Below, in pieces: positions 6,502 through 36,200 of a DNA stretch of 64,000 nucleotides. This stretch comes from a virus: positions 32,001 to 96,000 of the IMG/VR virus record IMGVR_UViG_3300030107_005430; one strand, written 5' to 3'. The notes under the pieces are model-generated. The model did not search any database. It was not told the origin of the DNA and was given only the letters and a program-made list of their open reading frames with translations. A program made the translations under genes and the position numbers. Every line of letters begins with the position of its first letter. Positions within the stretch are counted from its first letter, which is position 1.

Positions 6502-6529
6502 AATATACATTATTTTTAAACATTGTCAA
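6502..6529 (-). promoter_or_regulatory. Sigma70-type early promoter for the replication operon
   Basis: TTGACA-16 nt-TATATT; a late-type TCTAAATA lies just upstream (6536..6543). Confidence 0.7.
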
Positions 6530-6544
6530 CAGTAATATTTAGAA

Positions 6545-7285
6545 TCATCCAAATGCTTTTACAATAACTTTTCCATTTCCACCTGCACCGGGATCTCCTC
6601 CAGTTCCCTTTGCAGTACCACCACCACCTCCGCCGGGAACTGCTCCATCATCACCATCACGATTTCCTACAGTATTTACTCCACCATCGCCTCCTGCACC
6701 ACCATCTGGACCCCCTGCATCTCCACCATCACCACCAGCAACTGAGAAGTTTGAAACATTACCTCCTGCGGAACCACTGGTGTTTGTATCTCCGTTGGTT
6801 GAAGTTCCACCTGCACCTCCGTGGACTGGATTGGTGTTGTGACCACCTTCTCCACCATCTCCGCCGCCTGCTATAACATTAGTATATCCGTGAAGAGCGA
6901 AGCCTCCAGAAGTTTGTATTTGAATTAACTGGGTGTTTCCTCCATCTCCACCTGCACCTGCGACTTCACCATTACCATCTCCTGCCGCACCACCTGCACC
7001 GACAGTAAATTTTAGTTGATTGTTTTGTGCTACATGAGCATGTTGTATTTTGTATTTAAGATAGCCTCCACCACCACCACCTGCACCCGCCTGCGAAGCC
7101 GCACTTTTACCACTACCTTGGGAACCTCTATCACCACCACCTCCACCACCACCATACATCTCTACTTCAAGATACACTACACCTGCGGGTATAGAATAAG
7201 TCTGAGTACCAGTGCTTGTGATATTAGTGGTACTTAATACTTGATACTCTCTCGTACTCGCTGCTCTTGCTGCACCTAAACTCAT
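6545..7285 (-). CDS. Glycine-rich virion/fibre-associated protein
   Basis: TYSIPAGV...EMYGGGGGGG...FTVGAGG...GAGGNGKVIV is the common phage Gly-rich domain; ATGA-coupled to the fibre gene. Confidence 0.8.
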   Translation of the reverse strand: MSLGAARAASTREYQVLSTTNITSTGTQTYSIPAGVVYLEVEMYGGGGGGGDRGSQGSGKSAASQAGAGGGGGGYLKYKIQHAHVAQNNQLKFTVGAGGAAGDGNGEVAGAGGDGGNTQLIQIQTSGGFALHGYTNVIAGGGDGGEGGHNTNPVHGGAGGTSTNGDTNTSGSAGGNVSNFSVAGGDGGDAGGPDGGAGGDGGVNTVGNRDGDDGAVPGGGGGGTAKGTGGDPGAGGNGKVIVKAFG

Positions 7286-8883
7286 GCGAAGTTCAATCCA
7301 CCTACGAATCCGTAAATGTTAGTACCACCATCGGTAGTCAAGAATGAAAGTACGTCTGTACCTGATGATGATAGAGATGGTGCAGCACCACCCGGCCAAT
7401 CAACCGCTGAATGCCATGTTGTAGTATTTGCTCCACCGTTTGTGATGATGAGAGTAACCGTTCCTGCAAGTCCAGATGCGGGTGGATTTGTAAAAGTGAA
7501 TAGACAATCTCCATTTCCGGTTACTGTCTGAACAGTACCATCATTGAAATCAATACTGGTATTGGTAGTGATGGTTCCAATGTCATATACTGTTTCTCGA
7601 TATGGTTTTTCGAAGGTGACGCCAGCACCGCTAACATCTATCACATCCTGACGAGTACCACCAGTACTTGCTGATATAGTCAATCTTCCTGATTGCATGT
7701 CAATAGCAGTTGAACTGTCTCCGAAGTGTTGTATATAACGATCAACTGAAAGTTCATTTGCTCTGATGTTTATTTCTGCACCACCACCGTTGAATGCAAT
7801 ATGTTCAGTATCACCACCAATTGTAATAATCTGATCTTCTTGCATGATCAGATCACCACTAAGAGTTAATTTATCGAATGTAGCACCATCTGCGGATATT
7901 CCTCCGCCTTCAAGGTGTAATAAATGTTGAGGATTATTATTATTAATCCCAATATTACCATTTCCCAGAATTGTCATTCTGTCTTGATTGTCTGTTGCAA
8001 ATTGAATATATTGATTAGCAGATCCCGAAGATGACTCTGATTCAATATAGAATGCATTTCCTTGTGCGCCATCAAATTGATTATTCGATTCACCATTGAT
8101 TCCGATGTTACAACTGACTACTCCTCCGTCTTGTTCTAAACGAATGAGTGGGTTGTCGTTTTCACCAGAGTTGTCTGTATCTCCTTTAAGTGTAAGAGCA
8201 ACGTCACCTGCATTCTCGACCACCACATTACTACCGAATGTTGCTCCTTTACTGACATTTAGACCTCCAATAATATCCATTGTTGATCCGGGAGTATTGG
8301 TTCCAATTCCGACATTTCCAGAATCAAGAATTGTCATCTTCATATCACCATACACACCAAACTGTAAATCATTGTGACCCCATTTGGTATTTAAATACGC
8401 AGCATTACTTAATGAATTGGTAAATATCTGTCCAGCGTTACCTACAATACCCAGAGTGAAGTTACCTTCATCGCCATCTTGTCCCATTGATATGAGTGGA
8501 TTATCATTTTCACCGGAGTTGTCTGTGTCTGCGATTAGGTTGAGTGTTACATCACCCGTACTAATTGCTGTTATTTTTCCTCCAAATGTTGCTCCACCCT
8601 TTGCGTTAATTCCACCAGTCATTTCTAGTGTATGTTCGAGATTGGGACCAGTAATTCCTATTCCAACTCTGAGGTTGACAGCATCATAATAGAATGCAGT
8701 GGCACCCTGAATGATAGAACCAGTTGCATCATAGTATGCAATTTCTCCCGTGTTTCCCTGTTCGTTTCCAGTCTCTGTGGATGCACTTACTTCCCACGCA
8801 CCTTGAGCATTGTACTTCCAAGTTTTACCCTCGTAAGTATAGGTACTGTTTAATGATGCTGATGATGGGAAATTAATTGCCAT
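7282..8883 (-). CDS. Tail fibre-like protein with internal repeats
   Basis: N-terminal MAINFPS..Y.Y.GKTWKY...W module; three GN(V/I)GI...GATF repeats, two carrying DTDNSGENDNPLI; C-terminal FTFTNPP...VDWPGGAAPSLS..GTDVLSF fibre domain. Confidence 0.8.
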   Translation of the reverse strand: MAINFPSSASLNSTYTYEGKTWKYNAQGAWEVSASTETGNEQGNTGEIAYYDATGSIIQGATAFYYDAVNLRVGIGITGPNLEHTLEMTGGINAKGGATFGGKITAISTGDVTLNLIADTDNSGENDNPLISMGQDGDEGNFTLGIVGNAGQIFTNSLSNAAYLNTKWGHNDLQFGVYGDMKMTILDSGNVGIGTNTPGSTMDIIGGLNVSKGATFGSNVVVENAGDVALTLKGDTDNSGENDNPLIRLEQDGGVVSCNIGINGESNNQFDGAQGNAFYIESESSSGSANQYIQFATDNQDRMTILGNGNIGINNNNPQHLLHLEGGGISADGATFDKLTLSGDLIMQEDQIITIGGDTEHIAFNGGGAEINIRANELSVDRYIQHFGDSSTAIDMQSGRLTISASTGGTRQDVIDVSGAGVTFEKPYRETVYDIGTITTNTSIDFNDGTVQTVTGNGDCLFTFTNPPASGLAGTVTLIITNGGANTTTWHSAVDWPGGAAPSLSSSGTDVLSFLTTDGGTNIYGFVGGLNFA

Positions 8884-8901
8884 GTCTAATGTCCTTTACA
8901 C

Positions 8902-8909
8902 TATTTATC
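8902..8909 (-). promoter_or_regulatory. T4-type late promoter variant (GATAAATA)
   Basis: About 20 nt upstream of the fibre gene start. Confidence 0.6.
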
Positions 8910-10272
8910 AAAATTCTATCCAGTTACTTTGAGAAGAAACATATGTATATAATTTTGATCTGATGGGATCATACCAGCGATCACCGTCTTGGGGACCCGA
9001 TGGTGCTGATTCCGACTCAGTAAATTTTCCGGTGTCGCTGATTGTCATTTCTATGTCTTTTCCTTTTTGAGCCAAAGTTACCCCGGTTCCTCTGAATATT
9101 AGATCAGAAACAGATTTTATCATTTGTTTATCATTCACACCATCCGTCTTGTCACGAATACCAACAGCACCACCCGCTGCTGCTAACCAATCTCTTGTTC
9201 CTGCCCAATCAAAATCTTGTGATGACGGTTGAATGTTTAATATATTTGCAAGTGTTTTTGTGTCGAGATATACCTTGTCTTCCTCTTCATCTAATCGAAG
9301 AGGGAACTGAAATTTAGTTTTATCAAATGCATTCGTTCCATCTTGTCCGGGATCACCTTTGTCGCCTTTTATTCCTTTCTTTCCTTCTACTCCTCTTTCG
9401 CCCCGATCCCCCCTTTGTCCTTTTGCTCCTTGCTTTCCTTTTGTCCCTTGCTTTCCGGGATCGCCTTTGTCGCCTTTCGGACCTTTTAGTCCAATAGGTC
9501 CTTGAGGACCGACTTCACCCTGTATTCCTTGCTCGCCTTGAGGACCGACTTCACCCTGTATTCCTTGCTCACCTTGAGGACCGACTTCACCTCTTGGACC
9601 TATTTCTCCGGGAATTCCCTGTTCTCCGGGATCGCCTTTGTCGCCTTTATCTCCAATTTCTCCCCGAATTCCCTGTTTACCTTCAAACCCCTTCGGTCCT
9701 TTTGGTAACTTTACTTCAAACAGAGTTTTATCTGTCATATGGATCAATGCAGTTTCAGAATCTAAGTTTTCTACATAACGAACACCAACACCCCTCTCGC
9801 CGTGTTCTCCCTGTTCTCCTTTATCACCTTTCTCACCGGGAATTCCGGGAAGTCCGGGTTTACCGTCATCTCCTCTTTGACCTCTTTCTCCTTGGACACC
9901 TTGAATTGGTTGCTCTTTAATCTCTATTATCTTTTCAACCACCTCTGGTTCTTTTGGTTGTTCTTGTTTTGGTGTTATGAATTTATTGAAACTTTGATTT
10001 ATTTGTGTAAAGGAACCTTCAAGAAGGAAAGGACTTTCGTTCTCATCCACCACAAAAATTTCACTCACACCATTTCCAAAAGAAATTATGTTTGCATTAT
10101 CATTTTCTTCTGTAATGGTAAAAATATGTCCTGCTTCGAATAAATTTTCAATAGGACGAATCAAAACAAATTTATCACCAATACCATTCGAAGAACTTAA
10201 AATATTAAATTCGTCTTTGTTTGGTTCTGTGTTTGATTCAACTTTCAGAAAATTATTAAACGGGAGAGGCAT
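8908..10272 (-). CDS. Collagen-like (Gly-X-Y) fibre protein
   Basis: Two long G-X-Y tracts (GERGQRGDDG..., GPQGEQGIQG...); C-terminal GDRWYD...KLYTY...NWIEF module. Confidence 0.88.
   Translation of the reverse strand: MPLPFNNFLKVESNTEPNKDEFNILSSSNGIGDKFVLIRPIENLFEAGHIFTITEENDNANIISFGNGVSEIFVVDENESPFLLEGSFTQINQSFNKFITPKQEQPKEPEVVEKIIEIKEQPIQGVQGERGQRGDDGKPGLPGIPGEKGDKGEQGEHGERGVGVRYVENLDSETALIHMTDKTLFEVKLPKGPKGFEGKQGIRGEIGDKGDKGDPGEQGIPGEIGPRGEVGPQGEQGIQGEVGPQGEQGIQGEVGPQGPIGLKGPKGDKGDPGKQGTKGKQGAKGQRGDRGERGVEGKKGIKGDKGDPGQDGTNAFDKTKFQFPLRLDEEEDKVYLDTKTLANILNIQPSSQDFDWAGTRDWLAAAGGAVGIRDKTDGVNDKQMIKSVSDLIFRGTGVTLAQKGKDIEMTISDTGKFTESESAPSGPQDGDRWYDPIRSKLYTYVSSQSNWIEF
9500..9591. repeat. 36-bp tandem repeat (about 2.5 copies) within the collagen gene
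   Basis: ccttgaggaccgacttcaccctgtattccttgctc(g/a) x2 plus a 20-bp third copy; encodes GEVGPQGEQGIQ. Confidence 0.95.
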
Positions 10273-10274
10273 GA

Positions 10275-10403
10275 TTATCCTATAAATTTAGTTGTTTGTT
10301 CTTTCTTCGTTTTAACAACAACACTTAAAACTGTTCCAAGAGTTGTTCTTCTTTTTCTTGGCGTTTTCAATTCTAAAACTTTATGAGTTATCTTTACCTT
10401 CAT
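10275..10403 (-). CDS. 42-aa basic hypothetical protein (below ORF-track cutoff)
   Basis: MKVKITHKVLELKTPRKRRTTLGTVLSVVVKTKKEQTTKFIG; ATGA-coupled upstream, ends 2 nt before the collagen ATG. Confidence 0.6.
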   Translation of the reverse strand: MKVKITHKVLELKTPRKRRTTLGTVLSVVVKTKKEQTTKFIG

Positions 10404-10837
10404 CGGGTTATCTCCCCAACGCACTCAAATCTTCCTTGCAACAAACGAATACTTCCGCCCGTTGCTGTGATTTCTAAGTCGTATAAATGTCGGCCGGTTG
10501 GAACGTATCCCATTGCAGTAGCACCTGCAAATATATAAATTCCACCGTTTAAATCTCCGGTATCACCCTCTGATCTATTCATCACGATACCACCAGTACA
10601 GGAAGTCCTTGCCGTACCACCTCCGGTTATTCCTGCGGTGCATCCCAGAATAGAACTATATGGGTTGGATGTTAGATTTAGAAGAATTTTTGATGCATCC
10701 GTAGATCTTCTTACCTGCATATTTGCAGAATAAGTTGGTGATGGAACACTAATACTATTTCCATTTTCATCTTGATAATGAACATGGAGAATAAAATTAT
10801 CTCCCTGATATGCAACTATATCATGTTTTGCAGGCAT
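10400..10837 (-). CDS. Fibre-attachment beta-sandwich protein (LtfC/BppU-like)
   Basis: QGD.F...Y.D...YSANMQVR...YDLEI...RLLQGRF...EITR pattern; AAGGAG RBS; possible late promoter GATATATA at 10859..10866. Confidence 0.65.
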   Translation of the reverse strand: MPAKHDIVAYQGDNFILHVHYQDENGNSISVPSPTYSANMQVRRSTDASKILLNLTSNPYSSILGCTAGITGGGTARTSCTGGIVMNRSEGDTGDLNGGIYIFAGATAMGYVPTGRHLYDLEITATGGSIRLLQGRFECVGEITR

Positions 10838-10870
10838 GAAAAACTCCTTATATATTACTATATATCCCTA

Positions 10871-12220
10871 TTATCTCTTTCGTTTCTTACCTTTCTTTGG
10901 AGATTGAGTCTTTGTTCCTACCTTTACTTTATTTCTTTTAGCCTCTTTTTCTGCTTTTTTCTTTTCTTTTGCTTTAGCCTTTTCTTGCATTTCCTTTACA
11001 AGTTGTTCTTTTGCATTTTCTGTGTGCATCTTACCAAGCAATTGTTCATATTGAATGAGATTATTCGCTACCCTTTCTCGTTCAGATTCTGGGATTAAAT
11101 TTTCATCAATCAACCTCTTACATGCATGATATCCGACATGTGGTTTTCCTGCTGCCCATGCACTTGCACCAAGTTCGTCGAGAATTTGATACTTATAAAC
11201 TTCATCACTGATGAACAAAATATCGTCATGTGGATATGGTATCTCTATAGCCATTTTTGCAAAAATATAACCAAGTCGTGGCTTATCGTGCATTTGACGA
11301 TATATTCTTGCTAATTGATATAGAGGTTCTGCTCTGGTTGGTCTGGAATCATAACAATCTAAAAACTTTTGCTGAATCTCTTCCCAAGGCTTATTTAAAA
11401 TTGCAGTAATCAAAGCAACACGATAAAGAGAATAATAGACTTCCTCTTCCCATCCTCCCATTTCTGCTCGTCTTTGATACTGTTCTATTGATTTTTCGTA
11501 TTGCTGAGAATCAAAATAACTCTGTGCAAGGTAGAAAACATATCTAGAATTATCAGGATCATAGAATTGAGATTCTTCATTATATAATGCATCGTATAAT
11601 TTCTCTGCATCCTTTGAGTATTTTTCTTGTGTTGAAATTCCCACGTTTCTTGCACCCAAAGTTCTTGCAGTGATTTTATAATCACTCATCAATTTACCAA
11701 TTTTAGGTTGAGGATTTCCTTGACAGTTAGCATATTCATGAAGAACTCCAACATAGTGCCAGTCAGAATCTAGACGGAATATTTGATTTCTCCACCAAAG
11801 AAAATCTTCTCTTCCTAGACGAAGACTGTATGCATCTTCTTTCATTTCTTCAGGATAGATAAGATCACCTTCGATGTAATCGTCTGCATCAATCATCCAT
11901 GCATATTCTGCATTTCCTTTTGCATTTTGAAGTGCTTCTGTTCTTGAACCAATTCCCTGAGAACCATCACCGAATCCTTTCCAGTCGGAAAGATAAACTT
12001 CTCCGGGAATCCCATGTTCATCCATAAATTCCGTAATGAGTTCCGGTGTTCCATCGGTAGAACCAGTGTCTGTAATGTCATAACGATCAATGTATGGAAG
12101 CATTGATTTGAGACATTCTTTAATGATGTGGGATTCATCTTTCACAATCATACAAAGAGTTACAGTTGTTGGTTTTTTTACCTTCTTGACAGTTTTTACT
12201 GTTTTCATTTCACTATCCAT
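10871..12220 (-). CDS. GT2 glycosyltransferase with TPR repeats and Lys-rich tail
   Basis: TLCMIVKDE, DTGSTDGT, IDADD, YVGVLHEY; RYVFYLAQSYFD and PTRAEPLYQLA TPR helices. Confidence 0.9.
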   Translation of the reverse strand: MDSEMKTVKTVKKVKKPTTVTLCMIVKDESHIIKECLKSMLPYIDRYDITDTGSTDGTPELITEFMDEHGIPGEVYLSDWKGFGDGSQGIGSRTEALQNAKGNAEYAWMIDADDYIEGDLIYPEEMKEDAYSLRLGREDFLWWRNQIFRLDSDWHYVGVLHEYANCQGNPQPKIGKLMSDYKITARTLGARNVGISTQEKYSKDAEKLYDALYNEESQFYDPDNSRYVFYLAQSYFDSQQYEKSIEQYQRRAEMGGWEEEVYYSLYRVALITAILNKPWEEIQQKFLDCYDSRPTRAEPLYQLARIYRQMHDKPRLGYIFAKMAIEIPYPHDDILFISDEVYKYQILDELGASAWAAGKPHVGYHACKRLIDENLIPESERERVANNLIQYEQLLGKMHTENAKEQLVKEMQEKAKAKEKKKAEKEAKRNKVKVGTKTQSPKKGKKRKR

Positions 12221-12234
12221 TTATTATCACCTTT

Positions 12235-13152
12235 CTATGATGTCACTTCTTTATATGAAGAAATCCAATCTTGAAGTTTTACTTTGGGATTCCATCCTAA
12301 CATTATTTTAATCTTATTGATATTTGCTTTTGATATTCTAACCTCTGCAAGTCTGGGTGGGATATGTTGAAATTTTGCATCATCTCCCCCTATCATTCGA
12401 ATTAAATCAAATATATTCCAATTAACTCCAGTTCCAACATTGAAAATTTCCCCAAACACATCCTCATTCTTTGTTATTGCAGCATTAATATTCGCTTGTA
12501 CAACATCACTCACATGAGTAAAATCTCTTCGTTGCATTCCATCACCAACAACTGTCATTTCTTCATTATTTTCGTGTTGTCGGAGGAATAATCCAATCAC
12601 AGGAGCATACTGTCCTTTTACTGGTTGTCTTTCTCCATAAACATTGAAGTAACGGAATATGATGGTTTCCATCCCATACATGTCGTGGAACATCTTACAC
12701 AGATTTTCGCCCGATACCTTTGTGATAGAATATGCATTCAGACAATCTGGAATCATATCTTCAGTTACGGGTGCTTGATTATTCAAACCGTAAGAAGAAG
12801 AAGTAGAAGAATATACAAATCTCTTCACTCCATGTTCTCTTGCCGCTTGCAGAACATTGCATGTCCCATAAACATTTGTTTTTGCGGTGAGTGTTGGATT
12901 ATGAATTGCGGGTTGAATTCTTGCTTCTGCTGCCAGATGAAATACACAATCTACATCTTCAAATAAAGATTCTATCTTGTCATAATCACAAATGTCATAC
13001 TTGTAGTTATCTGCCTTATTGTTCCAATAAAAAGAATCATGACAATCAGTTGATTCGTTGTCTATAACGATAACAGAATGATCAAGTTCCAATAGTTCAT
13101 CTACTAAATTAGAACCAATAAATCCTGCTCCTCCTGTCACTAAATAACGCAT
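12235..13152 (-). CDS. NAD-dependent nucleotide-sugar 4-epimerase (GalE/WbpP-like)
   Basis: VTGGAGFIGS, YSITK, FRYFNVYG, RDFTHV. Confidence 0.92.
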   Translation of the reverse strand: MRYLVTGGAGFIGSNLVDELLELDHSVIVIDNESTDCHDSFYWNNKADNYKYDICDYDKIESLFEDVDCVFHLAAEARIQPAIHNPTLTAKTNVYGTCNVLQAAREHGVKRFVYSSTSSSYGLNNQAPVTEDMIPDCLNAYSITKVSGENLCKMFHDMYGMETIIFRYFNVYGERQPVKGQYAPVIGLFLRQHENNEEMTVVGDGMQRRDFTHVSDVVQANINAAITKNEDVFGEIFNVGTGVNWNIFDLIRMIGGDDAKFQHIPPRLAEVRISKANINKIKIMLGWNPKVKLQDWISSYKEVTS

Positions 13153-14126
13153 TTCAAAATCTCCACAATTTTTTCACTAGAAGTACCATCACCATAAGGG
13201 CACTCTTCATCTACTATATAGTCGTCTTTTATTCGATTGAATATTTCCTTCAAATCATTTGGTTCTTTGCATAGTATAGAAGACGTTCCTACAGAAGCAA
13301 GTCTCTCTGTTTTCTTTCGACAAACAATTATTTTCTTTTTAAAGAAAGATGCTTCCTCCTGTATGCCCCCACTATCTGAAATTATAAATCTGCATTTTGA
13401 AATCGCATTGATCATATCATCATATGATAAAGGTTCAATTACTGACACATCCTTCAACAGATCTCTATGTTTTCTTATCTCTGGGTTTGGATGTATGGGT
13501 AATACAAATTGTAAATCGGGATTGTTGGATGCAAGTTCTGATATTTTTTCAAAATATTCTGGTATTAATTTTAAATTCTCTCTTCTGTGTAGAGTTACCA
13601 AAACCACATTGTCATATGATATAGGAATTCCTTTTAAATTATCCAGCACAGTATTTCCTACGACATGAACATCTCCTACGACATGATCTTGACTCAAGAA
13701 TCCTGCTTCAAAGGCTGTTGGTGCTAGATGAATAGTCGCTATCTTTGATATACTTTGTCTATAAAATTCTTCTGGATATGGATTCTCGATGTCATATGTT
13801 CTCATTCCCGCTTCCAGATGTATCACAGGAATCTTATGATGGAAAGCAGACAGAGCAACAGCATAAGCAGTAGCAGTATCTCCTTGCACTAGAACATGAG
13901 AAACCCATTCTTCCTCAAAATCAAAAGAATTCATAACAGAAGAAACAATCGAATCTAATCTGTTTCTACCATCCGAGATTTTAATTAGATGATCATATTC
14001 ACCATCAACCATATCATTGTGTTGTGAAACTCTTAAAATTTCAAACGGAACAACCCCCGTCATTTTTTTAATGAGGGGTTTGACTTTAATATACTCTGGT
14101 CTTGTTCCGTAACAAACTAATATCAT
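13140..14126 (-). CDS. wecB: UDP-GlcNAc 2-epimerase, non-hydrolysing type
   Basis: GTRPE, VQGDT, HLEAGMRT, PYPEE, LHRREN, DSGGIQEEA. Confidence 0.92.
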   Translation of the reverse strand: MILVCYGTRPEYIKVKPLIKKMTGVVPFEILRVSQHNDMVDGEYDHLIKISDGRNRLDSIVSSVMNSFDFEEEWVSHVLVQGDTATAYAVALSAFHHKIPVIHLEAGMRTYDIENPYPEEFYRQSISKIATIHLAPTAFEAGFLSQDHVVGDVHVVGNTVLDNLKGIPISYDNVVLVTLHRRENLKLIPEYFEKISELASNNPDLQFVLPIHPNPEIRKHRDLLKDVSVIEPLSYDDMINAISKCRFIISDSGGIQEEASFFKKKIIVCRKKTERLASVGTSSILCKEPNDLKEIFNRIKDDYIVDEECPYGDGTSSEKIVEILKCVI

Positions 14127-14129
14127 AAT

Positions 14130-14444
14130 CTACTCATTTTCAAAAAATTCAGATGCGTTTATTGCTTTGTCGTCAATATAATGATCTGCTGCGTGTTTGG
14201 TTCCTGTTCGAAGGGTGTGATATTTTACACCCCAATTTCTCAATTGTCTTTCAGTAACTTCGTGCCAATCTTTTCCAGAAACTGATCCTCTCGCAGTCTC
14301 TATGATAATTTTGTTTCCTTTATCATAGAGAGAATTTACCTTTTCAATTCTCTTCAAAATGGGATATGATTTATCATACTGTTGACGATGCCATCCCTCA
14401 TCAAGTTTACAAAGAGTCCCGTCCAAGTCGAAACAATAAATCAT
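14130..14444 (-). CDS. Capless HAD phosphatase
   Basis: FDLDGTLC, TARG, YIDDKA; 104 aa. Confidence 0.85.
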   Translation of the reverse strand: MIYCFDLDGTLCKLDEGWHRQQYDKSYPILKRIEKVNSLYDKGNKIIIETARGSVSGKDWHEVTERQLRNWGVKYHTLRTGTKHAADHYIDDKAINASEFFENE

Positions 14445-20215: not shown

Positions 20216-20216
20216 T

Positions 20217-25663: not shown

Positions 25664-25664
25664 A

Positions 25665-28508: not shown

Positions 28509-29140
28509 GATTGTACCTCCATGATTGCATAATTAAATAAAGGATGCACAGTAGAATCTTTCTCATGGATTATTACCTCTGCATCTAAAACCTGCTTACA
28601 TCTTTCTATGAAATCATGATGATCGGAATCATCTATAACTATAAAACTTTTTTCTGATAATTTATTTTGAAGATGTAAAAATGAAATACTTCTTCCGTTT
28701 CCATTTGGACCATCCAAAACAACTAAATCTATGTTCTCTGGTAAATCATCAGATGTAATATCATAAAAAGAGTTTTTAACCCTGAAGTTATTTTTTTCAT
28801 ATTGACAATTTACAAATTTTTCTTTGTTATATGTTTTTGTTTCAAACATTTCTTCAAAATTTTCGTCGTTGCATTTGGTTATTTCAACGATATTCAAATT
28901 TAAAAAATCATGCGTCTTGGGGTATGAATATTCTTCATTGTGATCGAAAGAATGAATAGAGTAATTTAGATTTTTCTCTTGTCTGAGATCTACAAAAAAC
29001 TTAGTAGACTTACCAGAACCAAATTCTACTATTGTTTTGATACCATTCTCTATTATTATTTTTTCTAGATGTTTTAATTGTGATGAGTATAACCCCATTC
29101 CACCTAACCAATAACTTTCATAATTCATATCAATCTCCAC
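28505..29140 (-). CDS. O-methyltransferase-like protein
   Basis: IVEFGSGKST, DLVVLDGP, IVIDD. Confidence 0.8.
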   Translation of the reverse strand: MEIDMNYESYWLGGMGLYSSQLKHLEKIIIENGIKTIVEFGSGKSTKFFVDLRQEKNLNYSIHSFDHNEEYSYPKTHDFLNLNIVEITKCNDENFEEMFETKTYNKEKFVNCQYEKNNFRVKNSFYDITSDDLPENIDLVVLDGPNGNGRSISFLHLQNKLSEKSFIVIDDSDHHDFIERCKQVLDAEVIIHEKDSTVHPLFNYAIMEVQS

Positions 29141-29841
29141 AGGGAATAATCTTCATTCCCACCATTAAGTAAATCTACCCAAAATTTATCTTCTTTATTT
29201 ACTCTATCATCTATCCAGTTTTTGGAATGGATAATTTTCTTTTTCTTTCCAATAAACCCTGCACATATACAATATGTAGACGGACTAGAGATGATATAAT
29301 CACATTCACTTATGGTAGAAAAATCTTGAATGTAATTCGTTCTGTCTGGTGTATTCATACCGAATTTAATATTCTTTGATCTTTTCTCTAAACATTCTAC
29401 CACGGATTGGTATGATTTCAAATTTTTATCGTCAGTAAATATATAAAATGTTTCTGCGGTAACTTCATCTATTGCGTTCAAATAATACTCTTCATCTAAA
29501 ACCGCATCAGCATTCCATTGAAAAAAATCAGTTCCTCGAAAATGAATAGCAACTGAATTTTCCTCTACCTTTGGTTTTGTTTTCAATTCAAATATTGATC
29601 GTGTTGAAATAGAATTCCATTCAAAAAATTTCTCACCCAAGCAAAGACGTAATTCTTGATTCGCTATCTGAGAACCGTTTAGCATATCACCTTTGAAGAA
29701 TTGAAACCCATCCCAAGGAACACAAGACCACGTTTCCCCTTCTTTCTCTGCTAGTTGTCGTAGATTGTTGTAATATAAAATTCTATTACCGAATCCACCA
29801 CTCGTCATATTATTGATTGAAATCACGGATTTGTCTCCCAA
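29125..29841 (-). CDS. GT11 glycosyltransferase (paralogue of 18613..19455)
   Basis: GGFGN, AIHFRGTD, YY.NAI, DFSTISECD, STY; shares the C-terminal KKIIHS..W...FW.DL..GGNE.Y..WR. Confidence 0.85.
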   Translation of the reverse strand: MGDKSVISINNMTSGGFGNRILYYNNLRQLAEKEGETWSCVPWDGFQFFKGDMLNGSQIANQELRLCLGEKFFEWNSISTRSIFELKTKPKVEENSVAIHFRGTDFFQWNADAVLDEEYYLNAIDEVTAETFYIFTDDKNLKSYQSVVECLEKRSKNIKFGMNTPDRTNYIQDFSTISECDYIISSPSTYCICAGFIGKKKKIIHSKNWIDDRVNKEDKFWVDLLNGGNEDYSLWRLI

Positions 29842-30521
29842 CCTTTATCAATCCAATAATCATAAAGAGACCATCGAAAGTCATCGTGGTTTGATTTTCT
29901 CCATGTTGCATGTTCATCTGAACCAAGATATGTTAAAGTGTCTCCCCAAACTTCAGGTCTGTCCATCGGTTGAGATGGGAAATAAGAATCTATATTTCCA
30001 TGTATTTTGCAAGAGGCACAGAAATGAATATCTTCACCATTGTCATATGTGGGAGGATTTTCTTTCCACATATAATGAATCCACTCTGTCTTAAAGAACC
30101 AACAATGTCCAACTATATCACATTTAATATGCTCTGTGTTTCCGTCACCGCAGCCATATCCTGTTCGATTGTAATTTCTACAATTACCTCCTACAATGCA
30201 ATTTTTCTCATCGCATAAATTCTTACAGTGTTCCAACCATTTTGGATTTGGAATTGTGTCGTCATCAAAAATAACAGTATATTCAGTATCGAATAGTAAA
30301 GGTAGAGTGAATCTTCCGTGGAATTTAAAATTAACATCCTTAGAATGAATATGATTGAATTTATATTTTTCTTTTAGGTATTCAATATCAACATGAGATT
30401 CATTTTGATAGACATAGATTTCATTTATATTTGCAGTTTGTTGTTGAATAGCCTTTAATTGTAATTCTAAATTATTTCTTTTCCAAACTGTTAGTATCAC
30501 ATTTATCATTTCATACTCCAA
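29823..30521 (-). CDS. GT2/GT-A glycosyltransferase
   Basis: VILTVWKR, IFDDDTIP, DIVGH.W, GEDI. Confidence 0.8.
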   Translation of the reverse strand: MEYEMINVILTVWKRNNLELQLKAIQQQTANINEIYVYQNESHVDIEYLKEKYKFNHIHSKDVNFKFHGRFTLPLLFDTEYTVIFDDDTIPNPKWLEHCKNLCDEKNCIVGGNCRNYNRTGYGCGDGNTEHIKCDIVGHCWFFKTEWIHYMWKENPPTYDNGEDIHFCASCKIHGNIDSYFPSQPMDRPEVWGDTLTYLGSDEHATWRKSNHDDFRWSLYDYWIDKGWETNP

Positions 30522-31338
30522 TATTATTCTTTTCTAATATTTCCATAGTGGTATTAAACGAACCCTCAATGGAAGAATTCTTTTCAAACCAACGAATGCA
30601 ATTATTCGACAAAGTTTCCCAGTCTTCTTTGGAACAATTGTTGACAAGTTCGATTGCTTCCTCTGGTGAATTCGCTTTCAGATAATGGACGTTCTCTTCA
30701 ATTTGATTGTAGTGAGCAACAGAACACCCCGGAGTTATTATAGGAACAACTCCGAGTCCCATATACTCAATATCTCTTAAACATTTAGGTCCAACACCCG
30801 GTAAGCAAAGTCCGAATTTCATTTTAGATAATACTTTTAAATATTCAGCAGGTGAATATGCATCTCCGCCCGTAGTTAATATAAAAAAGTCACAACACTG
30901 TTTCCAATTTAAAGTTCTCATTGGAGTTGTCTTGCTCCCAACAAAACCCAATAAAACTTCTCTATCATCGTATGAAAGTCTGTTACTTATTTTAAAGTCT
31001 TCGTATAGTTTCGAATGTTTGGGCCAGAAAGACCAAGGACTTGATCTTTCCCCTTCTAGAATACTGTTTGCCCATAGAGAAAACTTCCAATTCTGATCTG
31101 GAGGTATTCTATCCAACAAAGCAAAATCATATAACATGATGTTACCAACTTCACCTATCCAACATTTTGCTTCTGGTAAATTTAGCACATCTGTATTAAA
31201 ATTGTAAGTGGGAACCGGACAAGGTTTCACTTCACAAAAACCCCTCTCTTCCCAAGCATCAACCAAACCACGAAACGAATCAGTGTTGTGTTCACAGAAA
31301 TATGGTTTTAATATAGTAATCTTATTTGGAATTTTCAT
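30511..31338 (-). CDS. Exostosin (GT47)-like glycosyltransferase
   Basis: GFVG, EY...L...KFGLCLPGVG...RDIE....GVVPI. Confidence 0.65.
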   Translation of the reverse strand: MKIPNKITILKPYFCEHNTDSFRGLVDAWEERGFCEVKPCPVPTYNFNTDVLNLPEAKCWIGEVGNIMLYDFALLDRIPPDQNWKFSLWANSILEGERSSPWSFWPKHSKLYEDFKISNRLSYDDREVLLGFVGSKTTPMRTLNWKQCCDFFILTTGGDAYSPAEYLKVLSKMKFGLCLPGVGPKCLRDIEYMGLGVVPIITPGCSVAHYNQIEENVHYLKANSPEEAIELVNNCSKEDWETLSNNCIRWFEKNSSIEGSFNTTMEILEKNNIGV

Positions 31339-32110
31339 ATTCTTTAGTATCCACTCCGCTCAAAACTAAATTAACTAACTTATCAATTTCATCTTTATGA
31401 TCCTGATATGGTCGAAGAGAATGTGAATCGTAATAATAATCATTCGGAACCAATGCTTCGTCGTATCCCCAATTAGGTCTATCTATTCTAAATCCATTCT
31501 GTCCACCATTACGTTTAATTAACACCACATCACCTACAGTGTGCATTCTTTCTATAACTTTTTTGCTTCCCCAATATTCATCTGCAAACCAATGATTTTT
31601 TCCTGCAAGATGTCCACCGGGATCATTACCCATATTCAATCCGAATAAAAATTTTATAGAGTCTTCCCAATTATCATGTAGATCTAAAACTTCTTTGTAT
31701 TTGGAACCCTTTGCTATGTGATAGCAACTTGGTATTATTCCATATGTCTCTATACAGGGATTAATATGAACGTAAGAATTATCATCTATATCAGCAATAG
31801 TATCTACAAAGTATTTCTTGGATAATGGTAACATATCAATATCACTTATGATGTTTACTGAATCTGGTTTCTGTGAAGTGTACCAATACCTCACCCATAG
31901 ATTTTGTAAATATAAAGGTATACCTTCTATGGGTTTCATTTTTACAACTTCCCCATAAGTATCATCTATGTTTATACTATGATCTTCGTCTATGTAAATT
32001 AACAATGGAGTTACATTGAATTTTAATTTCCATATTTTACTTACTATAGGCCAAAAATCCAAATACATTGGATTTGAATCGGAACTGTGTATTGCATAAT
32101 CTATTTTCAT
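31322..32110 (-). CDS. Putative GT-A glycosyltransferase
   Basis: SDIDMLP DxD motif, W..DE, terminal H..RP; island context. Confidence 0.55.
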   Translation of the reverse strand: MKIDYAIHSSDSNPMYLDFWPIVSKIWKLKFNVTPLLIYIDEDHSINIDDTYGEVVKMKPIEGIPLYLQNLWVRYWYTSQKPDSVNIISDIDMLPLSKKYFVDTIADIDDNSYVHINPCIETYGIIPSCYHIAKGSKYKEVLDLHDNWEDSIKFLFGLNMGNDPGGHLAGKNHWFADEYWGSKKVIERMHTVGDVVLIKRNGGQNGFRIDRPNWGYDEALVPNDYYYDSHSLRPYQDHKDEIDKLVNLVLSGVDTKEYENSK

Positions 32111-32790
32111 TCTGATGGGTCCTTTTCTATTTCTTCGCTTGGATCAAGAAACGCATATCCAACATGTTGTCTTGGTCTGGGACTCGTTGGGAATGGAACT
32201 GTATTTTGTTTATCGGTATGTCTTAGCCAATCATCGTGGGCTAATACATCCTTTGCATGTATACCCGGACTACACAACATACTTAAAAAGTCTTGATCTT
32301 CCCATGTATAGCCGCTTACATGCCAATAATCTCTTCGCAACGCTCCCGATTGAGTTAACCATTCTGTCAAAGAAAATTTCTTCTTCTTTGGTTTACATCC
32401 CCACATTCCAGTTTGAAACAGCATATTATGTGCATCATGATCTCTCATAGAATGAAGGGTTTCTTCACTTTCTAACCATTCGTTTACTGCTTCTCTTTCT
32501 CTGAAGGTTAAACAAGAATCTGCATCACGAACAATGACAGCATCATAATTTTCATCATCAACTGCTAGACATCTCCAAATGACTCCATGAAATTCACTTT
32601 CAGTCATATCTATCGTTTCACAACCTTGATCTTTGAGAATATCGACTGTCTCTTCTGGGACTGTTTTATCGTAATAAAACCGAACGTCCCATCCGGGATA
32701 ATACTTATCTGCAAGAGGTTTGTTCTTGATACAATTTTTGGTGTATCTCGGATCATCTCCATATAAACTAAATGAAATTAATCCCTTCAT
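32107..32790 (-). CDS. Putative glycosyltransferase, tandem paralogue B
   Basis: ISFSLYG, YPGW..RFY, WR.L, VRDADS, HSMRD, GMWG, DQ.FL. Confidence 0.65.
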   Translation of the reverse strand: MKGLISFSLYGDDPRYTKNCIKNKPLADKYYPGWDVRFYYDKTVPEETVDILKDQGCETIDMTESEFHGVIWRCLAVDDENYDAVIVRDADSCLTFREREAVNEWLESEETLHSMRDHDAHNMLFQTGMWGCKPKKKKFSLTEWLTQSGALRRDYWHVSGYTWEDQDFLSMLCSPGIHAKDVLAHDDWLRHTDKQNTVPFPTSPRPRQHVGYAFLDPSEEIEKDPSE

Positions 32791-33476
32791 TCCGATGGAT
32801 CCCTATCTGATTGTTCGTTTGGATCTAAAAACGCATATCCAACATGTTGCCTAGGTCTAGGATTTGTTGGAAACGGAAGAGTTCTCTGTCTATCTGTGTG
32901 TCTCAACCAATCATCGTGTGCAAGTACATCATTGATATGTGAATCTTCGCTCGATAAAAGTATACCTAAAAATAACTGATCTTCCCAAGTGACTCCACTA
33001 ACATGTTCATATTTTCCTTTCTTTAGTGGTTCTGCTATACCCAACCACTCTTCCATAGAAAATTTTCTCTTCTTTGGTTTACATCCCCACATTCCAGTTT
33101 GAAACAGCATAGTGTGTTGTTCTGCATCTCTCATAGAATGTAAAGTCTCCTCATTATTCAACCATTCCTTTACCGCTTGTGATTCTCTATAGTTCAGGCG
33201 GGAATCTACATCACGAACAATGACAGCATCATAATTTTCATCATCAACTGCGAGACATCTCCAAAGAACACCATGAATATCACTCTCTGTCATATCAACT
33301 AATTCACATTTCTGTTCTTGTAATATAGATAAAGTCTGAGAAGGAACTGTGTCATCATGATAAAATCTAAGAACCCAACCCGGATAATACTTATCTGCTA
33401 AAGGTTTGTTCTTTATGCAATTTTCTGTGTATCTCGGATCATCTCCATATAAACTAAATGAGATCAATCCTCTCAT
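32787..33476 (-). CDS. Putative glycosyltransferase, tandem paralogue A
   Basis: Same motifs as 32107..32790 with long identical stretches. Confidence 0.65.
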   Translation of the reverse strand: MRGLISFSLYGDDPRYTENCIKNKPLADKYYPGWVLRFYHDDTVPSQTLSILQEQKCELVDMTESDIHGVLWRCLAVDDENYDAVIVRDVDSRLNYRESQAVKEWLNNEETLHSMRDAEQHTMLFQTGMWGCKPKKRKFSMEEWLGIAEPLKKGKYEHVSGVTWEDQLFLGILLSSEDSHINDVLAHDDWLRHTDRQRTLPFPTNPRPRQHVGYAFLDPNEQSDRDPSE

Positions 33477-34909
33477 TGTTCTTTTACCTCATTAATATAA
33501 TGACATATCAATTCCCAAAGAATATCATCTGAAAGTTTCATTGTTCGTACTCTTTCAAAATTATCTTTAATCGCTTCCATTTTACTTTCATATAGTTCTC
33601 CAGTCAAGTCATTAATATCAAAAGATTCATCAAGAAGAATTATACCATCTGTATTGAAATAGTCTCCAATGTTTGGACATCCCCAGTAAACTGGTATTGT
33701 TCCATTTACGAAACAGTCCGTTATTTTTTCAGTGAAGTAATGTCTATATGAAGCATTTTCAATTGTTATTGAAAATCTATAATCTTTTAATGCTTCGCTC
33801 TTTGGTGGATGAGAAGCAGAAGCGTATCCAGCAGTTCCTATTTTAGAAGATCCACCAACACCTCCATAAACATCAATTTCATTCTTAAGTTTCTCTGCCC
33901 ATTGATGTCTCAACCTATGTCCATTCGTCATCAACTTTGGAGACGCCAATAAAGAACACATTTTAGTTTTTTCATGTATACCATAATCCTCTGCTGGTGT
34001 CCAAGGAAGATTGCTTCCAGATAATGCAAATCGGAATCTAGGATCTAGTCCTAATAAATCCTCATCGCATGTGAAGATTGCATCAAAGTGTTGGAAATAT
34101 TTTTCATAATCAACACGCAATGATTGGTATATTTCTTTGACTATCTCTTTGGATTCACACAACCAACCAAATCTATGAGTTCCATCTTTTCTTTCGTGTA
34201 AAGGACCTCCACGCATACCATTGTCAATGAAAACTTCAATGTCAGAATATCCTTCTGTCCAATGAAAGAAACGAGGTTTCAGTTTACCAGATGATGATCC
34301 ATCTTGTAAACTAAATGGTGGATAAAATACTTTAATCTTATTGCACTCATTTTCTCCATAACTTAAACCTATACTCACCTTTGTTACATCATTTTCGACT
34401 GCACACATTGAGGGGGGGAATAAAGTAAATGATGCATTTGGTTTATTTTCCTTTGCAGAAAGAATTAATTGTTCATGATCACCCAAAGTATATTTTCCAG
34501 ATATGGCATCTTTTATTTTACTTTCACACCGATCAATCCATGATTGTAGAAATTCTTTACTCTTATCAGAGGTATCAAAATACAACAAAGCACTATGTGG
34601 GGTTTTTAAATCATGTTCTCGTATAACACAACCCACATCTGTTTCTACTTCATCAAACTCTATTGGTATTTCATTAATAGTGCAATCAATATCAATCCAC
34701 AAAAGGGGTTCATCTAATTCATTTAGCATATCAAGAATGAATTGAGGTTTTCCTAAACAATTTAACATATAATGTTCTTTGCTTGGAATTTCTCTTATAT
34801 CATAAATAGCACCCAACTCATCTAGTCGGGTTTTAATCTTTTCTGCACAAGAAGAATAATATTTTCCACCGTCACGATCACAATAAAAACTAATGAACTT
34901 TGTTTTCAT
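33473..34909 (-). CDS. Bifunctional glycosyltransferase: GT-A domain + GT10 (alpha-1,3-fucosyltransferase-like) domain
   Basis: N-terminal KPQFIL...LLWIDID; C-terminal YRFSITIEN...YFTEKI.DCF..GTIPVYWG. Confidence 0.85.
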   Translation of the reverse strand: MKTKFISFYCDRDGGKYYSSCAEKIKTRLDELGAIYDIREIPSKEHYMLNCLGKPQFILDMLNELDEPLLWIDIDCTINEIPIEFDEVETDVGCVIREHDLKTPHSALLYFDTSDKSKEFLQSWIDRCESKIKDAISGKYTLGDHEQLILSAKENKPNASFTLFPPSMCAVENDVTKVSIGLSYGENECNKIKVFYPPFSLQDGSSSGKLKPRFFHWTEGYSDIEVFIDNGMRGGPLHERKDGTHRFGWLCESKEIVKEIYQSLRVDYEKYFQHFDAIFTCDEDLLGLDPRFRFALSGSNLPWTPAEDYGIHEKTKMCSLLASPKLMTNGHRLRHQWAEKLKNEIDVYGGVGGSSKIGTAGYASASHPPKSEALKDYRFSITIENASYRHYFTEKITDCFVNGTIPVYWGCPNIGDYFNTDGIILLDESFDINDLTGELYESKMEAIKDNFERVRTMKLSDDILWELICHYINEVKEQ

Positions 34910-35546
34910 AATTATTTCCCGGAGACTGCCATTCGATTTTATCTTCCGACAGTCCCATCTTTCTTAGGTTTTCTTTTTTGGATTCTGCATCTGCAAGTCC
35001 CATTGTAATGATTGTATTTTCGTTCGTGTGTCCCGGCCAGATGCAATATTCCGGTCCGACGAAACCTACATTTATAAGATTTAAATAACCAGCAACCACA
35101 CCAAATAGTGGTTCGTGATCAAAATCATTTGTATTTTCTTTTTTGATTTTTTTTGTGGTTTCAATCCATGTGTTTAAAAACTTTCTAGCATTATCATTAT
35201 TGTTAAAATAAATTGGAGATGCTTTCATTCCAGATAGCATACCATTTGCAGTTGATAACACTACATCGGATTTATCTTCAAATTCATCAAATGCATCTAA
35301 TGATTTATGAACCAATGAATCAACATCCAACCATAAAATTGGCTGTTGCTTTTCATCTAAAATATCTAAAATATACTGTGGTTTACTTAAACAGTTATCT
35401 TGGTATGATCCCAATGACTTTTTTTCTTGTATGTCGTAAGGCATATCAAGAGACGTACATCTCTCAATTAATCTATTCCCATGATCGCTGTAATATGTTT
35501 TATCTTCTATATCACTATAGAAACTCACAATTAATGTTTTCATCAT
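34890..35546 (-). CDS. GT-A glycosyltransferase, paralogue of the N-terminal domain of 33473..34909
   Basis: SFY.D...YYS, NCL.KPQ.IL, LWLDVD, FL..WI, DHE. Confidence 0.7.
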   Translation of the reverse strand: MMKTLIVSFYSDIEDKTYYSDHGNRLIERCTSLDMPYDIQEKKSLGSYQDNCLSKPQYILDILDEKQQPILWLDVDSLVHKSLDAFDEFEDKSDVVLSTANGMLSGMKASPIYFNNNDNARKFLNTWIETTKKIKKENTNDFDHEPLFGVVAGYLNLINVGFVGPEYCIWPGHTNENTIITMGLADAESKKENLRKMGLSEDKIEWQSPGNNYENKVH

Positions 35547-35552
35547 TTAATC

Positions 35553-36200
35553 CTAAATAATATGTTTATATAAATCGCTCAAAACATACCAATCTTCCCA
35601 ATGAACTTGAACAAATTTTTCATATCCTTTTGATTGTAGGAAATTTTGAATTTCTTCTTTTTGGATTTCATTATCATTATGTTCTATAGTAAAAGCACCA
35701 ATAGTGAAAGATGAAAAATCAATCCCCTTCAATACTTCAAGTTCTGAACCTTCCGTGTCAATAGAAATATATTCAATGAAAAGAGGTGCGTTATTTTCTC
35801 TCAAAACTTGATCAAGTGTTACTGTAGTCAGAGTGATAGTCTTTTCATAATCAACATTACCATCTCCATTAGGATAATCTTTTTTCTCTGTGTACATTTC
35901 AATACCACTATAGCAAGACTGAACTAGAAAGGAAACTTCTTCTCCGCTCTTTGACGAAATACAAGAATCCAAAACAATACAATCTCTATTTTTCCTTAAC
36001 TCTTCGGTATCATTTGGATTTGCATCAATACAAATACCACCCCAATCATATCCTTTTTCTAAAAGATAAGTATTACTCAGATTTGTTCCGGTAGTTGAAC
36101 CAACCTCAACGAAATATCCTTCTCTCTTTTCTCCGTACAAAAGAAGAATCCATATATCTTGATTTAGTTGACTCTTTTTAAATCTTGTATCTATTTTCAT
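35553..36200 (-). CDS. FkbM-family methyltransferase
   Basis: SQ..QD, FVEVG, SNTY.LE, SIDTEGSE, IEHN. Confidence 0.9.
   Translation of the reverse strand: MKIDTRFKKSQLNQDIWILLLYGEKREGYFVEVGSTTGTNLSNTYLLEKGYDWGGICIDANPNDTEELRKNRDCIVLDSCISSKSGEEVSFLVQSCYSGIEMYTEKKDYPNGDGNVDYEKTITLTTVTLDQVLRENNAPLFIEYISIDTEGSELEVLKGIDFSSFTIGAFTIEHNDNEIQKEEIQNFLQSKGYEKFVQVHWEDWYVLSDLYKHII

Follow-up and report, generated by a model that had tools for sequence, protein, structure and literature searches.

The 25.3-kb island of exactly 30 open reading frames (ORFs) that lies between regA and gp43 of a T4-like myovirus is, as we are moderately inclined to conclude from homology and synteny, a phage-encoded, lipid-carrier-independent cytoplasmic glycosylation system for the phage's own fibres. 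The island is contained in a stretch of 64,000 nucleotides (the window; positions 32,001 to 96,000 of IMG/VR record IMGVR_UViG_3300030107_005430) that forms part of a 157,073-bp, 87% complete contig. It occupies positions 10871-36200 of the window on the minus strand, and its genes, here numbered I30 to I01 in the direction of transcription, overlap or are separated by gaps of at most 14 nt, in line with the co-oriented, mostly overlapping array recorded in a preliminary description of the window that was made from the letters alone. The proposed role in fibre glycosylation is supported because I01 groups with enzymes that act on polypeptides, because relatives of I01 adjoin collagen genes with Gly-X-Thr runs, because the order from island to fibre genes is kept, and because no lipid-carrier or export function occurs in the contig.

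In transcription order the minus strand carries gp45, gp44, orf98, gp62, regA, I30 to I01, a small protein (p145), a collagen-like protein, a 533-aa protein of a tail-fibre family and a Gly_rich_2 protein, followed by a sigma70-type box, a strong hairpin, orf81, a dCTP deaminase/dUTPase-like gene, a DUF1599 gene and gp43. Both flanks had been named correctly: the translational repressor regA (36216..36626, minus strand; Pfam Translat_reg 1.3e-39) lies 15 nt ahead of the first island gene, and the identity of gp43 was confirmed. As gp43 and gp44 are only 51-58% identical to their counterparts in cyanomyophages, pelagimyophages and OM43 myophages alike, the phage belongs to a separate lineage without a cultured member in the phage collection searched. 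A megablast comparison of 19 kb of the island with GenBank phages returned zero matches.

The position of the island is a property of the lineage and not of this one genome. A search of IMG/VR for regA relatives gave 366 stretches, 80 of which were fetched. Among the 60 loci that extend at least 1.5 kb beyond regA, a homologue of I28/I29 opens the island right after regA in 56, and the other four open with other island-type genes. Five longer contigs (G001-G005) contain islands of 8-16 kb with differing middles, in which an I01 homologue (51-55% identity) is always the last gene. Fibre or virion genes lie beyond that homologue in all four longer contigs with enough sequence, and wherever the sequence of a relative continues past I01, fibre genes come next. 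The dCTP deaminase/dUTPase gene comes after the fibre block in both contigs that reach that far, one of which (G001) also contains DUF1599 and gp43. Even close relatives (regA 89-96% identical) still differ in the island middle or in the duplication of I26/I27, and in cyanophage Syn30 the regA-gp43 interval is likewise a variable accessory region. The conserved frame consists of regA, I28/I29, a variable middle, I01, fibres and gp43. The comparison of island content and position in related genomes, which had been proposed as a check, hence gave a twofold outcome, the island-to-fibre order being kept while the middle differs; the island is not the particular insertion between regA and gp43 for which it had been taken, but a conserved feature of a large uncultured lineage, in which cassettes are swapped.

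The conserved last gene, I01 (10871..12220, minus strand), encodes a 449-aa protein in which a GT2 glycosyltransferase domain of the GT-A fold (PF00535 4.2e-8, above cut-off) is followed by tetratricopeptide repeats (TPR) and a Lys-rich tail. The DXD motif reads DADD and is invariant in six homologues; TPR_17, TPR_2 and ANAPC3 match residues 203-252, each below its own cut-off. A profile built from six homologues also matches designed TPR proteins and MamA, and several homologues carry precomputed TPR families. The best solved relatives of this profile are GmaR (2e-14), SunS (4e-12) and the related peptide glycosyltransferase 7msk (8e-10), the next GT2 enzyme (5tze) following at 4e-4. I01 is not a SunS orthologue, since it scores 18.9 against the NCBIfam SunS equivalog, the cut-off of which is 350. 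On this basis I01 is a candidate initiating protein O-glycosyltransferase. More than 5,000 metagenomic relatives of I01 exist, many of them marine (Tara Oceans), and a search of the phage collection found no I01 homologue among its cyanophage or Pelagibacter phage records. The Lys/Arg-rich C-terminal tail (e.g. KKGKKRKR; window 10871-10960) is conserved on I01 and its homologues, and might bind membrane or nucleic acid or act as a targeting signal.

The genome context of bacterial I01 relatives bears on the acceptor. In one-genome-per-species data 584 stretches with such relatives were recovered and 80 were fetched, and a collagen-like run was defined as at least 8 Gly-X-Thr/Ser triplets, its distance being taken from the I01-relative gene. 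Such a run is present within 1.5 kb of the gene in 30 of the 80 loci (232 kb examined), at 1.5-4 kb in 6 and beyond 4 kb in 4 (492 kb examined), so that, normalised by the sequence examined, such runs are about 16 times as dense next to the gene as beyond 4 kb. In Bacillus marasmi, for instance, two Pfam-collagen genes are found directly upstream of the I01 relative on the same strand, and in three Peptostreptococcaceae genomes of 4.1-4.3 Mb a ~365-aa ORF (profile ~1e-17) stands directly upstream of a long GPT/GAT collagen gene. Judging from family and gene arrangement, the latter ORF is probably sgtA, the gene that in Clostridioides difficile adjoins bclA3, which encodes a collagen-like spore-surface protein (PMC7157674). 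SgtA comprises a GT-A domain (residues 1-260) and four TPR (262-358), and adds beta-O-GlcNAc to Thr and Ser of the BclA3 collagen repeats in vitro (PMC7157674). Flagellin genes were also considered as partners of the bacterial relatives; they are not adjacent in five genomes checked, the neighbours in B. marasmi being the collagen genes.

Downstream of I01 the window contains, as had been described, genes for collagen-like, tail-fibre-family and Gly-rich proteins, assignments that Pfam and PHROG bear out. The collagen-like fibre protein (8908..10272, minus strand) matches PF01391 (6.7e-27) and PHROG tail fibre families; BclA-type Gly-X-Thr acceptor sites were looked for in this gene and are absent. 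The 533-aa tail-fibre-family protein (7282..8883, minus strand; phrog_9017 8.9e-11) is rich in Ser, Thr, Gly and Asn, and the glycine-rich protein (6545..7285, minus strand) matches PF21722 (Gly_rich_2, 7.4e-17) and the tail-fibre-assembly-like phrog_863 (1.5e-14). Gly-X-Thr runs do occur in the fibre genes after I01 in five relatives (G001, G002, G003, G004 and L030), as well as in a tail fibre of Tunturiibacter phage Tunturi_5, ~4 kb from its I01 homologue. In the genome studied, a BclA-type Gly-X-Thr run is found beyond the window, at the N-terminus of a 1016-aa tail-fibre-like ORF (genome 112067-115117, minus strand; 80067-83117 if numbered as in the window) that shares its gene run with a 723-aa tail-fibre protein, and more Gly-X-Thr-like runs are present at genome 111906-112013 and 106138-106200. 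These genomic runs are candidate acceptor sites for an SgtA-like enzyme.

The gene between I01 and the collagen gene, p145 (10400..10837, minus strand; 145 aa; phrog_1084, function unknown), had been called a fibre adaptor, but can be described only as a small all-beta protein, its AlphaFold2 model being poor (predicted local distance difference test, pLDDT, 58) and Foldseek returning only weak jelly-roll/CBM-like rows. It also comes directly after I01 in G001 and G002, and these two relatives, found by synteny, are the only ones known from a tblastn and pattern search of cultured phages and IMG/VR. A complex prediction for I01 and p145 gave a weak pass (score 0.37, against 0.02 for the best of 3 controls; at least 21% of contacts in common between runs; partner pLDDT at least 70), the mark used being one that 58 of 80 solved complexes reach, as do 2 of 110 mismatched pairs, with passes up to 0.60 more often wrong than right. 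In G004 and G005 the place of p145, between the GT2-TPR gene and a 1271-1281-aa protein, is taken by three paralogous proteins of ~105-114 aa (L085:6118-7133 and L086:5870-6889) without a PHROG match.

The preliminary description had further claimed that the island lacks an initiating polyprenyl-phosphate transferase, Wzx/Wzy, an ABC exporter and a membrane anchor, and both the hydropathy scan and Pfam agree. A Kyte-Doolittle scan finds no transmembrane segment in the island and no polytopic protein of more than 200 aa in the whole 157-kb contig. PF02397 and PF00953, which cover initiating transferases of the WecA/MraY and WbaP/PglC kinds, give zero matches in the contig and do match control genomes, and PF00005 yields only sub-threshold P-loop matches there (the clamp-loader gene gp44 and a second large ORF). 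The search for membrane or export partners elsewhere in the genome, which had been named as a possible refutation, was run on this 87% complete contig and found none. The one O-antigen/capsule-locus trait that is present is the combination of soluble glycosyltransferases and nucleotide-sugar genes in one operon.

The number of glycosyltransferases had been put at about 14. Counting as firm those above a Pfam cut-off or with a predicted fold, and as weak those with sub-threshold matches, we find 7 firm and ~5 probable ones, I09, I15, I24 and I25 receiving no assignment. Six pass the Pfam cut-offs: I01 (GT2), I11 (GT11), I12 (GT2), I19 (GT17), I22 (GT11) and I28 (GT10). The seventh is I29 (34890..35546; this and all genes below on the minus strand), the conserved leading gene in relatives, which matches no Pfam family and for which an AlphaFold2 model from 17 homologues (pLDDT 88) has a GT-A fold. 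Its best Foldseek match is domain 1 of the PBCV-1 capsid-glycan enzyme A64R (2p6w; E 8e-9, template-modelling (TM) score 0.62-0.65, 12% identity), with GT6 enzymes next; the likeness to A64R shows no specific kinship, because at these values the match is only at the general GT-A level. I28 (33473..34909) is a two-domain glycosyltransferase with an I29-like N-domain, evident from tblastn cross-matches between the two genes, and a GT10 fucosyltransferase-like C-domain (PF00852 9.2e-10; H. pylori FucT 3.9e-10). I27 and I26 (32107..33476) are probable GT-A enzymes and tandem paralogues (73% identity) with an RDxDSR (DXD-like) motif, for which the protein atlas offers GT8/Nucleotid_trans at 0.92 as a lead only; I26/I27 is single-copy in the near-identical relative L003 and in L004. 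The family profiles of I26/I27 and I29 found nothing among PDB sequences, and relaxed Pfam scans of I09, I15 and I24-I27 gave nothing usable. I25 and I24 (30511..32110) have no family match, with homologues of 37-39% identity in L008, L011, L042, L056 and L061. I23 (29823..30521) is a weak GT2 (PF00535 7.2e-4, below cut-off) with 69-71% homologues in relatives, I22 (29125..29841) belongs to the alpha-1,2-fucosyltransferase family GT11 (PF01531 2.8e-5), I19 (27085..27906) to GT17 (PF04724 1.3e-13), and I12 and I11 (18613..20215) are above the Pfam cut-offs, whereas I14 (22775..23731) is a weak GT8 (PF01501 E 0.0068). A hint that I18 (26444..27088) might be a GT29 'sialyltransferase' was rejected, the PF00777 match (E 0.0073) lying below cut-off and no PDB relative being present. 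The protein atlas places I15 (23731..24834; 367 aa) nearest to clusters of hypothetical proteins from Planctomycetota and Lentisphaerota (0.92-0.93, 197-207 shared features), with a distant hint of a beta-propeller (GH32/GH43/BNR) fold; this likeness may bear on the identity of the host, as a lead only.

The nucleotide-sugar enzymes that had been reported are borne out by Pfam, with one correction. I02 (12235..13152) is an NAD-dependent sugar epimerase/dehydratase (PF01370 3.5e-59) and I03 (13140..14126) a UDP-GlcNAc 2-epimerase of the non-hydrolysing WecB type (TIGR00236, 225 bits at a cut-off of 210) and not NeuC: it scores 59 with the NeuC model at a cut-off of 236, so that an epimerase of the hydrolysing type is lacking. 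I06, I05 and I04 (14130..15897) correspond to a NeuB-like synthase without the C-terminal domain (PF03102 9.1e-63), a CMP-ulosonic acid cytidylyltransferase (PF02348 2.7e-28) and a small HAD phosphatase (HAD 5.7e-5), which by their family matches make up a nonulosonic-acid-type branch: the condensing synthase and the CMP-activating cytidylyltransferase are both there. The sugar itself cannot be named, because I06 and I05 fall below every NCBIfam equivalog cut-off. Upstream enzymes of the pseudaminic (Pse) or legionaminic (Leg) acid routes are missing, the DegT/LegC/PseC-like aminotransferase I08 (16550..17194; PF01041 6.1e-23) being a short form of 214 aa that is far below the NCBIfam cut-offs. 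The suggestion that the glycan might be sialylated is thus retained as far as synthase and cytidylyltransferase go, and is weakened by the WecB-type epimerase and the failed GT29 match of I18.

I13 (20217..22778) is a fusion of an SDR sugar reductase/epimerase and a zinc-finger C-methyltransferase, indicative of a branched deoxysugar step (PF01370, PF08421, PF08484 2.3e-45), with homologues of 68-71% in L007 and L016. It is one of seven firm methyltransferases, the others being I07 (15894..16553; S-adenosylmethionine (SAM) methyltransferase, PF08241 2.2e-17), I17 and I16 (24809..26447; SAM methyltransferases, PF13649 1.5e-18 and PF13489 2.2e-22), I21 and I20 (27867..29140; PF13578 2.7e-8 and PF08241 1e-7) and I30 (35553..36200; FkbM-type, PF05050 6.7e-16). 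Eight methyltransferase domains had been counted; beyond the seven, I10 gives a weak FkbM-type match only. I10 shares positions 17188..18628 with I09, in which there is a weak 2OG-Fe(II) oxygenase hint.

As to expression, the description had pointed to a late-type box before regA. The box concerned, TATAAATG (36624..36631, minus strand), overlaps the regA ATG and is conserved only in L002 and L003; the position at which relatives carry an exact TATAAATA is 44 nt upstream of regA, and there the genome has the late-promoter-like CCTAAATA (36663..36670, minus strand), with 6 of 8 positions matching. Of the 80 loci from relatives, 41 nevertheless have an exact TATAAATA and 62 have ATAAATA in the 60 nt upstream of regA, the expectation for a window of that length being 0.006 and 0.021, respectively; such a box is thus more evident in the clade than in the genome studied. 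A review that was consulted contained no published T4 late promoter for regA, and none is claimed here. Canonical TATAAATA boxes stand ahead of structural genes elsewhere in the genome; the sole exact copy in the region is inside I12 (19726-19719), where chance alone could give one. A late-promoter variant, GATAAATA (8902..8909, minus strand), lies 26 nt ahead of the 533-aa fibre gene and at 24-26 nt also precedes three other genes. A perfect 12-of-12 sigma70 box (TTGACA-17-TATAAT) is situated inside I14 (23079-23051, minus strand), ~270 nt ahead of the I13 start, and might drive early transcription of the distal half from within the island. The island is probably reachable by both early/middle and late transcription.

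Taken as a single pathway, the genes would act in three steps. Soluble I01, an enzyme of the GmaR/SunS/SgtA kind, would put the first sugar on Ser/Thr of phage fibre proteins, most likely in collagen-like Gly-X-Thr runs and other Ser/Thr-rich stretches. The other ~10-13 soluble glycosyltransferases would then lengthen the glycan with sugars that the island may itself provide, i.e. UDP-ManNAc, a CMP-activated nonulosonic-type acid, a C-methyl-branched deoxysugar and an amino sugar, after which the 7-8 methyltransferases would cap or decorate it. Exchange of the middle between relatives would give strain-specific fibre glycans. What the analysis establishes is which genes are present, that their products are soluble, their synteny and the kinship of I01; in this scheme we infer the acceptor, the order of the steps, their timing and the existence of one product for all 30 genes. 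More tentatively, SgtA-like priming of fibre segments and a swappable cassette of up to ~28 further enzymes might together produce a strain-specific methylated nonulosonic-acid oligosaccharide; this would be the largest known phage-encoded protein glycosylation machine.

Several points weigh against fibre glycosylation, which is deduced from homology and gene order. The homology of I01 to characterised enzymes is mainly confined to the GT-A domain. The collagen protein that adjoins the island is not an obvious (BclA-type) acceptor, because the Y position of its Gly-X-Y runs, which are rich in Lys (15-27%), Gln and Glu, is without Thr, and the Gly-X-Thr fibre of the same genome is ~70 kb from the island. 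The late box upstream of regA is, in this genome, only a 6-of-8 variant, and early expression is also likely because the island lies in the replication module without a gap after regA and has an internal perfect sigma70-type box. The relatives behind the counts are not mutually independent, and the contig lacks 13% of the genome. O-antigens, too, are assembled on undecaprenyl carriers by soluble glycosyltransferases of these families, and the missing export genes are not decisive, because the phage could borrow the initiating enzyme, flippase and ligase of its host. The earlier proposal of cytoplasmic glycosylation of phage structural proteins is partly borne out, with real though indirect backing from the relation of I01 to GmaR, SunS and SgtA, from the collagen-like Gly-X-Thr genes beside its bacterial relatives, from island-to-fibre synteny and from the lack of carrier and export genes; the adjoining collagen is the part that fits it poorly.

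A serious rival is remodelling of the host envelope, in which case a new glycan would be assembled on the undecaprenyl-phosphate carrier of the host via its initiating transferase and its flippase/polymerase or ABC exporter, and lipopolysaccharide (LPS) or capsule would be altered during infection, for example to block superinfection or to prevent re-adsorption of progeny. The GT2, GT8, GT10, GT11, WecB, NeuB-like synthase, cytidylyltransferase, SDR and DegT-like families are typical of O-antigen/capsule loci, most O-antigen glycosyltransferases are likewise without transmembrane segments, and the location in an early/middle replication module with a perfect sigma70 box inside fits this role. 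Host-envelope remodelling stays plausible, since lipid-linked acceptors are also used by soluble transferases of these families, and it is how the literature interprets the glycosyltransferase clusters that cyanomyophages and pelagimyophages, both marine T4-like phages, carry in the region for host recognition (PMC7029224, PMC12801897). We nevertheless consider it less likely than fibre glycosylation: there is no initiating transferase, flippase, polymerase, ligase or ABC transporter in 157 kb, the glycosyltransferase kept at the fibre end is akin to polypeptide-glycosylating and not to lipid-linked enzymes, and half of the relatives have a late promoter ahead of regA. Moreover, since the island middle is swapped between close relatives, the export system of the host would need to accept very different glycans.

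Fibre modification and the bulk of the island might also be separate matters, I01 alone adding a single sugar to the fibres and the other 29 genes making a different product (a host-surface or soluble glycan, or a modification of capsid or sheath) that merely shares the hyperplastic region with the fibres. The regA-gp43 interval of Syn30 is filled with unrelated accessory genes, the island middle varies independently of I01, and no extending enzyme is identifiable for SgtA (PMC7157674). The gapless, translationally coupled I30-I01 array, which in many relatives begins and ends with the same genes, favours one unit, so that we regard such a division as improbable. Far less credible still is hypermodification of the phage DNA, in which glycans would be placed on modified bases as an escape from restriction, as in T4 and phages with glycosylated hydroxymethyl-pyrimidines. 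The island does lie amid replication and nucleotide genes, with the dCTP deaminase/dUTPase-like and DUF1599 genes just ahead of gp43, and passages in the literature mention diverse DNA glycans made by phage glycosyltransferases; yet the contig contains no thymidylate-synthase/dCMP-hydroxymethylase gene (PF00303), and I01 groups with polypeptide glycosyltransferases. To our knowledge, nonulosonic acid, a C-branched deoxysugar and eight methyltransferases have no precedent in DNA glycans.

If the island is read as a fibre glycosylation system, its parts can be compared with several known ones. SgtA-BclA3 resembles it in layout: in both cases a soluble enzyme with an N-terminal GT-A/GT2 domain followed by TPR is encoded beside a collagen-like structural gene, Gly-X-Thr runs occur in fibres of the phage lineage, and the I01 profile matches SgtA-like ORFs at ~1e-17. 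The two differ in that I01 has 449 aa with a Lys-rich tail and homology mainly in the GT-A domain, closes a 30-gene glycan operon whereas sgtA stands alone, and has a neighbouring collagen without Thr at Y. GmaR (the Listeria flagellin O-GlcNAc transferase) and SunS/ThuS (peptide S-glycosyltransferases) similarly combine GT2 with helical/TPR repeats and modify a polypeptide directly in the cytoplasm, but their acceptors are flagellin and the Cys of a bacteriocin peptide, to which a single sugar is added without extension enzymes. In FlmG of Caulobacter the TPR part binds the protein substrate and nonulosonic acid is transferred, the domain order being opposite to that of I01 and the catalytic fold different. 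FlmG is described as a modular soluble flagellin glycosyltransferase (TPR and glycosyltransferase) that attaches pseudaminic acid to flagellins in a cytoplasmic O-glycosylation pathway (PMC7591256).

Among viruses, soluble glycosyltransferases, methyltransferases and own sugar nucleotides are known to yield methylated virion glycans in giant viruses (chlorovirus PBCV-1 A064R; the Mimivirus fibril clusters), which differ in having eukaryotic hosts. Virion glycosylation in mycobacteriophages reportedly involves one to a few glycosyltransferases without sugar-nucleotide pathways. There, as in the island, phage glycosyltransferases encoded beside structural genes modify virion proteins in the cytoplasm, the glycans being located at the C-termini of capsid and tail-tube subunits (Freeman et al. 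2023, to the extent that it is cited in PMC12619734 and PMC12801897); the island differs by its 30 genes and by fibres as the suspected target. The 'LPS'/cell-wall and host-recognition clusters of marine T4-like phages (P-SSM2, S-SCSM1, S-SCSM2R and pelagimyophages; PMC12801897, PMC7029224) share with it many glycosyltransferases and sugar epimerases together with tail-fibre genes in a hypervariable region. The island array exceeds the 13 glycosyltransferases of S-SCSM2R, which were called a possible record, has a fixed I29/I28 ... I01 frame and belongs to a distinct lineage, and the papers on the marine clusters propose modification of host surface or DNA, not virion glycosylation (PMC12801897, PMC7029224). 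That marine T4-like phages carry glycosyltransferase clusters next to their fibre genes is, in other words, already known (PMC7029224, PMC12801897); what is new is how large the array is, that its frame has been quantified, that a late box recurs across the clade and that the I01 family is linked to Gly-X-Thr collagen-like genes and SgtA.

The marine clusters were noticed as early as the first cyanophage genomes and are given the label 'LPS' or host-surface genes as a matter of routine and without test, and the link between I01, SgtA and collagen makes the question reducible to a simple enzyme assay. If fibre glycosylation is true, the 'LPS genes' of at least the marine myophage lineage studied here would be virion-glycosylation genes, and variation in the fibre glycan, besides that in the fibre protein, would help to determine adsorption, host range, or escape from recognition by host or grazer. 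Virion glycans would then add a new dimension to the interactions of marine phages with hosts and grazers, and, should a swappable cassette glycosylate the fibres, the fibre sequence alone would not suffice to predict host range. The scale of relevance follows from the more than 5,000 metagenomic I01 relatives, which mark an abundant lineage of uncultured marine T4-like phages. The GT2-TPR/Gly-X-Thr collagen link itself spans Bacillota, Actinomycetota, Pseudomonadota and Chloroflexota and should be useful for the biology of bacterial surface glycoproteins.

Some further observations concern the variable middle and the downstream end of the unit. Runs X3 and X4, from two other samples of the study, contain contigs that join position 15803 to 20290, skipping 4486 bp (I07-I12), and further contigs join 14807 to 17347. 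The skipped stretches hint at cassette-level deletions in co-occurring variants, although the contigs may stem from other relatives, given flanks of only 25-45 nt and a likeness threshold of 85%. The unit ends (6427..6529, minus strand) in a sigma70-type box (TTGACA-16-TATATT, 6529-6502) and a 50-nt hairpin (-29.3 kcal/mol, z -3.3) ahead of orf81; the hairpin could either terminate the island/fibre unit or belong to the leader of the next one. The dCTP deaminase/dUTPase-like and DUF1599 ('nucleotide modification associated domain 1') genes occupy window 5275-6212, directly ahead of gp43; among relatives, DUF1599 is kept at that position in G001, and the dCTP deaminase/dUTPase gene in G001 and G002.

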